Shown here piece after piece: positions 1,036 to 4,000 of a stretch of 64,000 nt of DNA. The DNA is from Escherichia coli (lineage in GTDB: Bacteria > Pseudomonadota > Gammaproteobacteria > Enterobacterales > Enterobacteriaceae), in the NCBI RefSeq assembly GCF_013122565.1, contig NZ_CP053258.1; one strand, written 5' to 3'. Positions within the stretch are counted from its first letter, which is position 1, and each line of letters opens with the position of its first letter. Position numbers: made by a program.

Positions 1036-4000
1036 TAAATAAAACGGGAGGCGAAGGTGCCTCCCGTTTTTAGATTGTTTTCAATTGATTGATAATGAAA
1101 GGATTCGCTTGCAAAAGCAGGAGCAATTTTCGAGGTGCTCCGGTAGGTTGACGGCGTTTGGTTTCCCAGCTTTTCACCAGGTCATAACTTACCCCTACGG
1201 CGACAGCAAAATCTTGCTGACGTAAACCCGTTGCTTCACGGATCGCTTTTACATCGATCTCGCTAAAAGTATGGACGTGCTCTGGTTCAGGCGTTTCTTC
1301 ACCCTTTTCGATGCGTACCATTTCTTCTGTGCTGGCAAGAAGATCAGCAAATAATTCATCTTTCATCTGTTTTCAATGTCTCCGTTGGCATTTCGACCAT
1401 GGTGAAATTTGTGGAGCTTCAACATTAAAGCAGCTTCTCGGACAATAGTTTCAATGCCTTTCTTTGTTCTTCTGTTAAATCATCCTGTTCATTTTTAGGA
1501 TAAATCAACGCCAGATAAATTCGGCCATTGCGTGTTACGTTGTAATAAATTATCCGAATGCCACCCCTTTTCCCCATTCCAGAACGGTTCCAGCGAATTT
1601 TTCTAAAACTGCCTGTGCCTGCGATAATGTCACCGGCAGTGGGATCTTGAATGAGTAGTTCCTGAAAAGCCCGGAACTCATCATCAGGTAGTAATAACTG
1701 GCGGCGTTTGCTAAATCCTTGTAGTTCAATAAAGGTGAACATAATGCATCCTGCGGTCTATTGATAATTATAAGTGTACCGTGTACATATTGGTAGCTAA
1801 TTAGATATAAAAAAACCCCTTATCCGTTTGGATAAGGGGTCAATGAGATATCAGCTGATTACAGCTTCGGACCAGCCGCTACCAACGCGGCACCCGCTGG
1901 GGTGTCGGTGTATTTATCGAAGTTGTCGATAAACAGTTTCGCCAGCGTTTCAGCTTTTTCCTGCCACTGTTCCGGGGAAGCGTATGTGTTACGCGGATCG
2001 AGAATCTTCGTGTCTACGCCCGGCAGTTCTGTTGGGATCGCCAGGTTAAACATCGGCAGAGTGAAGGTTTCTGCGTTATCCAGCGAACCGTTGAGGATGG
2101 CGTCGATAATAGCACGGGTATCTTTGATGGAGATACGTTTGCCAGTACCGTTCCAGCCGGTGTTAACCAGATACGCCTGCGCACCTGCCGCTTGCATACG
2201 TTTTACCAGCACTTCTGCGTACTGAGTCGGGTGCAGCGACAGGAACGCCGCGCCGAAGCAAGCGGAGAAGGTTGGCGTCGGTTCGGTAATGCCACGCTCA
2301 GTACCGGCCAGTTTGGCGGTGAAGCCAGAGAGGAAGTGGTACTGGGTTTGATCGGCAGTCAGACGAGAAACCGGTGGCAGCACACCAAAGGCGTCTGCGG
2401 TCAGGAAGATAACTTTAGTTGCGTGGCCCGCTTTGGAAACCGGCTTAACGATGTTATCGATGTGATAGATCGGATAAGAAACGCGGGTGTTCTCGGTTTT
2501 TGAACCATCATCAAAGTCGATAGTGCCATCTTCACGCACGGTGACGTTTTCCAGCAGCGCATCGCGACGGATAGCGTTGTAGATTTCAGGTTCCGCTTCT
2601 TTCGACAGCTTGATAGTTTTTGCGTAGCAGCCGCCTTCGAAGTTAAACACGCCGTCATCGTCCCAGCCGTGCTCGTCATCACCAATCAGGCGACGTTTCG
2701 GGTCGGTGGAAAGGGTGGTTTTACCGGTGCCGGAAAGGCCGAAGAACACCGCAACATCGCCTTTCTCGCCAACGTTGGCGGAGCAGTGCATAGAAGCGAT
2801 ACCTTTCAGCGGTAGCAGGTAGTTCATCATTGAGAACATCCCTTTCTTCATTTCGCCGCCGTACCAGGTGCCGCCAATCAGCTGCATGCGCTCGGTCAGG
2901 TTAAACGCCACGAAGTTTTCGGAGTTCAGACCCTGTTCTTTCCACTGCGGGTTAGTGCACTTCGCGCCGTTCATAACGATAAAGTCTGGTTTGAAACCTT
3001 CCAGCTCTTCATCGCTCGGGCGAATAAACATGTTTTTGACAAAATGCGCCTGCCAGGCCACTTCGGTGATGAAACGAACGGAAAGACGCGTGTCCGGGTT
3101 CGCACCACAGAAAGCGTCGACAACGAACAGACGTTTGCCGGAAAGCTGTTTGGTCACCAGGCCTTTCAGATGCTGCCAGGTTTCCGGAGAGAGAGGTTTG
3201 TTGTCGTTCTTACCTTTGCCTTTGTCTGCCCACCAGAAAGTATCGCGAGTGGTATCGTCACGGACGATATACTTATCTTTTGGTGAACGACCGGTGAAGA
3301 TCCCGGTATCGACGGCAACGGCACCCAGATTAGTTAACACCCCGCGCTCATAACCTGTCAGGCTCGGATCGAGCTCTTCCTGATACAGCAGGTCGTAGCT
3401 TGGGTTGTAAACGATATCATGTACGTCACTGATACCATAAGCCTCGAGTTCTTGCGGGGTCAAACCATTGTTAACGCGCATTTCACTGCTCCTTAGCCAA
3501 TATGTATTGCCTGAATAGTAAAGTCTTTTTGGGGGTGTTAACCGCGACAAGGCTCATAGATTTACGTATCTGGAGAAATTCATATTTGACAAAAAACTCC
3601 GTGATTCCTGTCACGAAACGGTTGCTATTATCGCAGAAATAGCATTTTAGGTGTGGAAAATGTTCTTAAAAGGTTAAATCTTGGTTTATATGGCGGGAAT
3701 ATTGTGAGTGAAATCGCATTCCGGAATGAAATTAATGCAAATTCAATCAGTAAAGTATCGATTCACCACGCTAACTTTTTTTTGATTATTTTTTGGAAAA
3801 AGCAAAATACTACTGCCCGGATGCGATAATTAACCCACCTTTTGATTCTGGATAACCAACATGGATAACGTTGAACTTTCACCGGCAACACGCTGGGGGA
3901 TGATTGCTACCGGATTACTTCAGGGGCTGGTTTGCTACCTGCTGATCGCCTGGCTTGCCGGAAAAAATCACAGTTGGATTGTTTATGGCGTGCCTGCGAC

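Follow-up and report, generated by a model that had tools for sequence, protein, structure and literature searches.

A HigBA-2-family toxin-antitoxin operon as a probable old allele of the Escherichia coli envZ/pckA spacer

Introduction

The convergent genes envZ and pckA of Escherichia coli are separated by a spacer whose content differs between strains. In the stretch analyzed here (64,000 nucleotides (nt) of contig NZ_CP053258.1, RefSeq assembly GCF_013122565.1; hereafter the window), this spacer measures 820 nt and contains two small genes on the minus strand, which an earlier note, made from the sequence alone, took for a self-contained toxin-antitoxin cassette of the hig type. Here, we describe the two proteins, the signals that surround their genes, the distribution of the cassette in E. 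coli and other genera, and the selection acting on it. We conclude, with a probability of roughly 0.8, that these chromosomal genes form a type II toxin-antitoxin operon, belonging to the HigBA-2 family and combining a PF06296 toxin with a NadS antitoxin, and that the cassette represents an old allele of the spacer. The module is of a known kind, already annotated in RefSeq, and the mechanism of its family has been solved in Vibrio cholerae.

A toxin-first gene pair between envZ and pckA

The envZ stop codon ends at position 1038 and that of pckA, on the opposite strand, occupies 1859-1861, leaving the 820-nt gap that had been measured before. The list of open reading frames (ORFs) agrees with the earlier description of the pair, with 105 amino acids (aa) followed by 98 aa on the minus strand and 58 nt between them, and the toxin gene precedes the antitoxin gene, which is the hig order; only the toxin gene has a promoter upstream of it. 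Two lines that had been counted by hand at 40% and 37% G+C (1081-1140 and 1501-1560) have exact values of 0.400 and 0.367 (36.7%). Over the 788-bp segment that sets this allele apart from the K-12-type spacer, the G+C fraction is 0.42, compared with 0.58 in envZ and 0.53 in pckA, in line with the earlier estimate of above 50% for the flanks. The flanking genes (ompR-envZ, pckA, yhgE and hslO) have housekeeping functions.

The 105-aa protein is a HigB-2-like member of the RelE/ParE superfamily. Its translation contains GTGSFRKIRW, GKRGGIRIIYY and YPKNEQDDL, the motifs by which the class had first been recognized, and it matches Pfam family PF06296, the one that the earlier note had anticipated, at 27.6 bits, narrowly passing the cut-off of 27. 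Its only significant relatives of solved structure are five entries for V. cholerae HigB-2 (E 1e-23; chains including 5ja9, 5ja8 and 8a0x), to which it is 49% identical over 98 aa (residues 3-100). Substituting alanine for Arg51, Arg64, Tyr82 or Lys84 of V. cholerae HigB-2 lowered activity 170- to 3000-fold each (PMC5416850), and these residues align with R50, R63, Y81 and K83 of the toxin, so that all four catalytic equivalents are kept. A further landmark is the 65-IIYY-68 repeat of the V. cholerae protein, which permits the beta-3 strand to slide upon antitoxin binding (PMC5416850); it aligns with an IIYY repeat at residues 64-67. In a survey from 2025, HigB-2 is assigned to PF06296, the gene order is given as toxin-first and the activity as ribosome-dependent mRNA cleavage (PMC11980606).

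The 98-aa protein is built from an acidic N-terminal segment, putatively toxin-binding, and a C-terminal XRE-type helix-turn-helix, as had been proposed. Ten of its first 30 residues are acidic (D/E) and three are basic, and residues 39-76 match Pfam families HTH_31 and HTH_3, the latter again as expected beforehand. The NCBIfam equivalog model NF041265 (NadS) matches residues 5-96 at 75.2 bits, against a cut-off of 60, and an identical sequence stands in NCBI as 'NadS family protein [Escherichia coli]'. The Prokaryotic Genome Annotation Pipeline (PGAP) labels the two genes 'type II toxin-antitoxin system RelE/ParE family toxin' and 'nadS'. HigA-2 chains 9tv9, 5j9i and 5jaa in the PDB align end to end with residues 4-94 of the antitoxin (E 5e-5 to 2e-4), at an identity of 29%. 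Three of the four base-contacting residues of V. cholerae HigA-2 are changed (R68D, E71K and N72S), while R77 is kept.

A literature search for the basis of the name NadS did not find it, the results being dominated by unrelated acronyms. A separate PGAP-annotated 'nadS' (RS26030) has been reported as expressed in K-12 strain BW25113 and may be an orphan HigA-2-like regulator; a DNA-level search for antitoxin paralogues in E. coli returned the cassette itself only and did not locate RS26030.

Promoter, candidate operator and terminators

Read along the minus strand, the pckA stop codon is followed by a hairpin with a run of seven T, an AT-rich stretch, a -35 element, an inverted repeat, TATAAT, AGGA and the toxin ATG (Table 1). 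The TATAAT hexamer had already been taken for the promoter of the pair. A consensus promoter scan made no call there because the -35 element, TACCAA, matches at just two of six positions. The 116 nt upstream of the toxin gene show no difference between the window, E. albertii and a second E. coli strain, and CAGG(A/G) is kept at the position of the toxin Shine-Dalgarno sequence in the genera that carry the cassette at the same site (see below) and in most other enterobacterial loci. The gap between the two genes ranges across genera from a 4-nt overlap to 85 nt and is conserved in neither length nor sequence; we therefore infer no conserved internal promoter.

The inverted repeat, TGTAC-ACG-GTACA, accounts for 13 bp of the 17-bp promoter spacer (-35 to -10) and is the candidate operator of the operon. 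Matches to TGTAC-N3-GTACA number one in the window, against 0.03 expected. We compared 27 enterobacterial or Photobacterium loci, retrieved by toxin homology with one genome per species, and found the exact pattern solely upstream of the toxin gene in 25, with invariant half-sites and a variable N3. Its position is conserved across genera in which the genes occupy differing chromosomal sites. Most genera have two copies, 30 bp apart around a TTGATT -35 element; Escherichia, Citrobacter and Kluyvera have the promoter-proximal copy only, and in one locus outside the 25, that of Enterobacteriaceae B14, the distal copy is exact and the proximal one is a single base off.

The V. cholerae HigA2 operator, defined by footprinting, reads TGTACGC-N5-GCGTACA and likewise lies between -35 and -10 (PMC11006873). 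More distant relatives of the cassette, in Alkalimonas, Rheinheimera and Arsukibacterium, carry TACGC-N5-GCGTA, matching this operator. The single inverted repeat between -35 and -10, a feature of the family, is present in the window as a candidate whose spacing differs and whose presumed reader differs at three of four contact residues. These altered residues fit the altered operator, and the antitoxin may bind the candidate site.

Hairpins with T-runs stand at both edges of the spacer, as had been noted. The terminator scan made calls at 1041-1070 (plus strand) and 1841-1814 (minus strand), with four sites against 1.1 expected in shuffled sequences. The envZ hairpin folds on the plus strand at -21.2 kcal/mol (z -5.0) and the pckA hairpin at -20.4 kcal/mol (z -5.3), and 0 of 200 shuffles did as well. 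On the minus strand, the envZ hairpin reaches -21.7 kcal/mol (z -7.6) with a T-run downstream. The antitoxin stop codon abuts this symmetric hairpin and the operon has no terminator of its own, so the description of the cassette as self-contained does not hold; the hairpin ends envZ on the plus strand and would end toxin-antitoxin transcripts on the minus strand.

The earlier note had also assigned each flanking gene its own, retained terminator. Both hairpins are real by this analysis, and the envZ one is found in the empty allele of K-12 as well; the pckA-side hairpin is absent from K-12 and is therefore part of the cassette-bearing allele. It is kept in Citrobacter and Kluyvera, with changes on both sides of the stem. 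Inspection by eye revealed no second hairpin in the 75-nt K-12 spacer, of which no terminator scan was made, and with one hairpin pckA there most likely relies on the shared envZ structure. An Rfam scan of positions 900-2000 gave sub-threshold chance matches only.

Table 1. Features of the envZ/pckA spacer in the window, ordered by position (minus sign, minus strand).
Feature	Position	Strand	Description and basis
Bidirectional intrinsic terminator, envZ side	1041..1070		12-bp G+C-rich stem between an A-run and a T-run; scan and folding
Antitoxin gene, HigA-2-like (PGAP name nadS), 98 aa	1070..1366	-	ORF list, Pfam, NCBIfam, PDB
788-bp segment	1071..1858		Stands in place of 44 unrelated nt of the K-12-type spacer; alignment with an empty-site genome
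Intergenic spacer, 58 nt	1367..1424	-	Carries GGAG (1383-1380) as Shine-Dalgarno sequence, 13 nt ahead of the ATG of the antitoxin
Toxin gene, HigB-2-like (RelE/ParE superfamily, PF06296), 105 aa	1425..1742	-	1428-1742 without the stop codon; ORF list, Pfam, PDB matches, residue mapping
Shine-Dalgarno sequence AGGA	1749..1752	-	6 nt ahead of the toxin ATG; sequence
-10 hexamer TATAAT, operon promoter	1767..1772	-	Sequence; positional homologue of the -10 in other genera
Candidate operator TGTAC-N3-GTACA	1775..1787		Uniqueness, cross-genus conservation, position in V. cholerae
Putative weak -35 element TACCAA	1790..1795	-	Positional homologue of TTGATT in genera with two operator copies
pckA terminator	1807..1841	-	12-bp stem, 4-nt loop, T7 run; directly upstream of the toxin-antitoxin promoter; scan and folding

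Distribution and origin of the cassette

Mapping presence and absence across E. coli, as the earlier note had suggested, we found the cassette in 1324 of 5426 complete genomes (24%), a carrier being a genome that holds at least 80% of the 788-bp segment. Every one of its 1334 places is on a chromosome, at the envZ/pckA junction, and there is no phage or plasmid copy. The genomes of K-12, BL21, O157:H7 and ST131 are without it. The empty spacer of the K-12 type is 75 nt long, which bears out the earlier figure of less than 0.1 kb, and consists of the envZ hairpin and 44 nt without significant similarity to the cassette. We considered these 44 nt as a cassette remnant and rejected the idea; the best alignment, with the operator/-10 region, scores 10 against 10.5 +/- 1.3 for shuffled sequences, and 234 of 300 shuffles reach that score.

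E. albertii, Citrobacter sp., C. portucalensis and three Kluyvera genomes (K. ascorbata, K. sichuanensis and another Kluyvera) carry the cassette at this junction too, and the same-site genera share the layout of hairpin, operator and promoter. The cassette also occurs at unrelated sites in Klebsiella, Leclercia, Pseudescherichia, Edwardsiella, Budvicia, Photorhabdus and others. Of the earlier description as strain-specific accessory DNA, the accessory character stands, and the implied recent arrival in single strains falls with the occupied junction in E. albertii, Citrobacter and Kluyvera.

Synonymous divergence adds a second line of evidence. Between the window and Citrobacter or Kluyvera, the proportion of synonymous differences per synonymous site (pS) is 0.62-0.78 in the cassette and 0.49-0.61 in the flanks, both near saturation. 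Compared with other E. coli, the cassette has a pS of 0.03 and the flanks 0.10-0.13; compared with E. albertii, the values are 0.08-0.10 for the cassette and 0.30 for the flank (pckA). Within Escherichia, the synonymous divergence of the cassette is thus about one third that of its flanks, and this roughly threefold reduction agrees with replacement of one allele by another through homologous recombination in pckA and envZ, a route by which the arrival of the cassette requires no mobility gene.

Signs of mobile-element cargo (terminal repeats, a mobility gene within 9 kb, a non-chromosomal copy) were not found. In agreement with what had been observed near the cassette before, no integrase, transposase or insertion sequence is annotated within 9 kb on either side in one cassette-bearing strain, and a search for direct or inverted repeats bracketing the cassette gave none that were convincing. 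G+C content is low relative to the host in 14 of the 15 other genera compared, Budvicia being the exception, and is therefore largely a property of the cassette. We read the cassette as an old allele of the pckA/envZ spacer that has been lost or has decayed in many lineages; its transfer within Escherichia most likely proceeded by homologous recombination in the core genes on either side.

Two observations concern the surroundings of the cassette. In the E. albertii type strain NBRC 107761 (retrieved-locus positions 866-970 and ~3945 onward), envZ homology ends 245 nt into the gene and the yhgE region of the window (3770-5719) has no counterpart, which suggests a rearrangement or disruption beside the cassette. 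Separately, over window positions 1859-6000 (pckA-yhgE-hslO, 4.1 kb) the best complete E. coli genome in the collection is at most 98.1% identical; because of this core identity and the pS of 0.10-0.13 that pckA and envZ show against typical E. coli strains, the window belongs to an unusual Escherichia lineage. That lineage is not E. albertii, whose flanks show just 93-94% identity.

Purifying selection and repeated loss of the toxin

Both genes are under purifying selection. Over 14 cross-genus comparisons, the ratio of nonsynonymous to synonymous difference proportions (pN/pS) spans 0.16-0.23 in the toxin gene and 0.04-0.13 in the antitoxin gene. The synonymous substitution rate (dS) is saturated in most cross-genus pairs; where it is estimable, the ratio of nonsynonymous to synonymous rates (dN/dS) is 0.05-0.10 for the toxin (five pairs) and 0.015-0.03 for the antitoxin (three pairs). 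In every one of the 14 comparisons the antitoxin is ahead in aa identity (83-95% versus 73-82%), with pN values of 0.03-0.11 versus 0.11-0.17, and its residues 1-23 are nearly invariant from Photorhabdus to Escherichia. An antitoxin better conserved than its toxin is the reverse of the usual toxin-antitoxin pattern.

The toxin coding sequence is intact by annotation in the six strains inspected that are not of the type found in Nissle 1917, where the toxin is a pseudogene (D21K and a stop at codon 22; PGAP note 'internal stop') beside an intact antitoxin. The Nissle promoter has in addition a 7-bp deletion that removes one operator half-site. The toxin stop allele occurs in 107 complete genomes, including CFT073 and E2348/69, and 104 genomes match the promoter region at 89.4% identity, the value seen for the 7-bp operator deletion. 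Stop and deletion were both seen directly in Nissle, and the sampled strains EcPF5 and E5 are in both lists.

Beyond E. coli, the toxin is broken in further, independent cases that keep the promoter, the operator and an intact antitoxin: in two Kluyvera genomes, Phytobacter ursingii and Enterobacteriaceae bacterium B14 the antitoxin has 98 aa, and in Photobacterium ganghwense, where the toxin is split, it reads as 113 aa from an upstream start. A toxin-antitoxin pair would be expected to decay in this order, toxin before antitoxin; the pattern also allows the antitoxin a role of its own. The 'degraded' alleles of BS-04 and HS-02 were rejected as cases of decay; these 4.5-Mb assemblies, with consecutive accessions, show homopolymer-length changes throughout, and the alleles are probably assembly errors.

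Relation to known systems

The closest characterized relative is HigB-2/HigA-2 of V. cholerae (VCA0468/VCA0469; PDB structures 5JA8, 5JA9, 5JAA, 5J9I and 8A0X). Both systems are toxin-first operons; the toxin here keeps the catalytic residues, the IIYY repeat and a Gly/Lys/Arg-rich beta2-beta3 loop, and the antitoxin, aligned from end to end, shares the two-part build of N-terminal neutralizing segment and C-terminal XRE helix-turn-helix. Each has a single inverted repeat with TGTAC/GTACA outer half-sites between -35 and -10. The two differ in the antitoxin, with its low identity and altered base contacts, in the operator (13 bp here, 19 bp in V. cholerae) and in genomic setting, which is between core genes here and in the superintegron there. 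On every testable feature the cassette is a member of the HigBA-2 family, with an operator that is equivalent by position only.

The enterobacterial RelE/ParE plus NadS pairs labeled by PGAP (in Klebsiella, Citrobacter and Leclercia, and as WP_000493756/WP_000650976 in E. coli) are the same genes, with toxin identities of 73-100% and antitoxin identities of 83-99%. Nothing essential differs; the cassette has one operator copy, and most genera have two. A pan-genome table of E. coli isolates lists 'Toxin HigB-2' and 'Antitoxin HigA-2' (PMC10304320).

HigB/HigA of Proteus vulgaris Rts1 and of K-12 (YgjN/YgjM) share the toxin-first order and a helix-turn-helix antitoxin, and their toxins are ribosome-dependent mRNases of the RelE superfamily, as in the HigB-2 type (PMC5416850, PMC11980606). 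They belong to Pfam families PF05015 and PF09907, in contrast to PF06296 here (PMC11980606), and the Rts1 antitoxin is fully folded, has no disordered neutralizing tail and adopts another dimer geometry (PMC5416850).

Other antitoxin models fall short. The match to YiaG (NCBIfam PRK10072) reaches 65.7 bits, below the cut-off of 110, and MqsA models match weakly, under their cut-offs; the protein has no zinc-binding CxxC domain. K-12 RelE/RelB is encoded antitoxin first and has a ribbon-helix-helix antitoxin. RelE itself is in PF05016, unlike the PF06296 toxin here (PMC11980606). Nonetheless RelE-like are the reported active-site layout and cleavage pattern of HigB-2 (PMC5416850), and the DNA-binding domain of V. 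cholerae HigA2 has been described as MqsA-like (PMC5416850).

Proposed mechanism and alternatives

The intact catalytic residues, together with a toxin pN/pS of 0.16-0.23, suggest that the toxin-antitoxin pair is active. By analogy with V. cholerae, the toxin would enter the ribosomal A site and cleave translated mRNA. The antitoxin would fold its acidic N-terminal segment onto the toxin, displacing the C-terminal helix of the toxin, and a shift of the beta-3 strand would move R63 out of the active site. A dimer of the antitoxin, through its helix-turn-helix, would bind TGTAC-N3-GTACA between -35 and -10 and repress the operon, and proteolysis of the antitoxin under stress would free the toxin. 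Transcription would begin past the pckA terminator, which may shield the promoter from pckA read-through, and would end in the bidirectional envZ hairpin.

Several points weigh against assigning the cassette to HigBA-2 as an active module and an old, recombining allele. The PF06296 score barely exceeds its threshold, and no NCBIfam model names the toxin. With N3 between the half-sites where the V. cholerae operator has an equivalent N9, and with three of four contact residues differing, operator recognition is not simply transferable from V. cholerae. The poor -35 and the distance of the antitoxin Shine-Dalgarno sequence from its ATG make expression levels uncertain. Recombination is inferred from only about 200 codons, and repeated inactivation of the toxin in relatives, with the antitoxin left intact, means that the toxin is dispensable. 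The literature search turned up no experimental work on this orthologue, be it on toxicity, neutralization, mRNA cleavage or operator binding, nor on its position between envZ and pckA.

The conservation pattern invites the thought that the antitoxin is the selected component, perhaps a domesticated small transcription factor or an 'anti-addiction' immunity protein against incoming HigB-2-type toxins, which we consider unlikely. In its more specific form, the module would be centered on a NadS/HigA-2-like protein retained chiefly as a transcription factor that regulates itself and may also have host targets, with a weak or dispensable toxin carried along. The antitoxin's lead in 14 of 14 comparisons, its almost invariant first 23 residues, the name NadS that PGAP gives it as a family of its own, and at least five independent lineages with a broken toxin, an intact antitoxin and a retained promoter all point that way. 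However, losing the toxin first is how toxin-antitoxin pairs ordinarily decay, and the toxin is itself under purifying selection with its catalytic residues kept. The operator occurs once in 64 kb and, per 6-kb locus, only at the cassette, so no regulon is visible. The V. cholerae N-terminal segment does both toxin and operator binding (PMC11006873), which would explain the constraint on its counterpart, and we regard this form of the idea as rather improbable.

Abortive infection against phage as the main role would leave the HigBA-2 mechanism unchanged, with phage in place of starvation as the trigger. RelE/ParE-superfamily toxins do occur in defense systems (PMC11980606), and a patchy presence among strains is typical of defense genes. 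On the other side, the toxin matches no family in PADLOC and the antitoxin gives generic helix-turn-helix matches only, the neighbors are housekeeping genes with no defense island, and the 1334 E. coli places, all chromosomal, include no phage or plasmid. A primary role in defense is accordingly a doubtful proposition.

Two explanations fare worse still. An inactive relic, with ORFs intact by chance and a toxin no longer toxic, would accord with the 107-genome nonsense lineage, the weak -35 and the long antitoxin Shine-Dalgarno spacing, but it is very unlikely given that the catalytic residues are all intact, both genes have pN/pS of about 0.2 or lower, and the toxin gene is annotated as intact in six strains outside the Nissle type. 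Least probable, and largely refuted, is a recent one-strain insertion of foreign AT-rich DNA by an unrecognized mobile mechanism, for which the G+C of 42% against 53-58% in the flanks, the absence from K-12 and the orthologues at unrelated sites in Klebsiella, Leclercia, Pseudescherichia and others could be cited, but which conflicts with the same junction and layout in E. albertii, two Citrobacter species and three Kluyvera genomes, with divergence from Citrobacter and Kluyvera as saturated as that of the flanks, with presence in 24% of E. coli across many backgrounds, with the lack of flanking repeats and mobility genes, and with low G+C as a cassette trait.

Implications

For annotation nothing changes, as both genes are labeled in RefSeq. 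The operator motif, the cross-genus synteny at one site, the recombination signature and the null allele of Nissle and CFT073 appear to be undescribed, but they are incremental. Studies of envZ and pckA 3' ends meet different termination signals in cassette and empty alleles. The probiotic Nissle 1917 and the pathogens CFT073 and E2348/69, toxin-null and operator-damaged, and K-12, which is empty at the site, are natural controls for the module.

How HigA-2-type repressors retarget could be approached simply through the conserved 13-bp operator and the changed DNA-contact residues; if the antitoxin is indeed the selected component, TGTAC-N3-GTACA would be a new recognition geometry for its class of helix-turn-helix. 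More broadly, the locus illustrates how a toxin-antitoxin pair without mobility genes may be maintained, and may spread, as one allele of the spacer between two genes.

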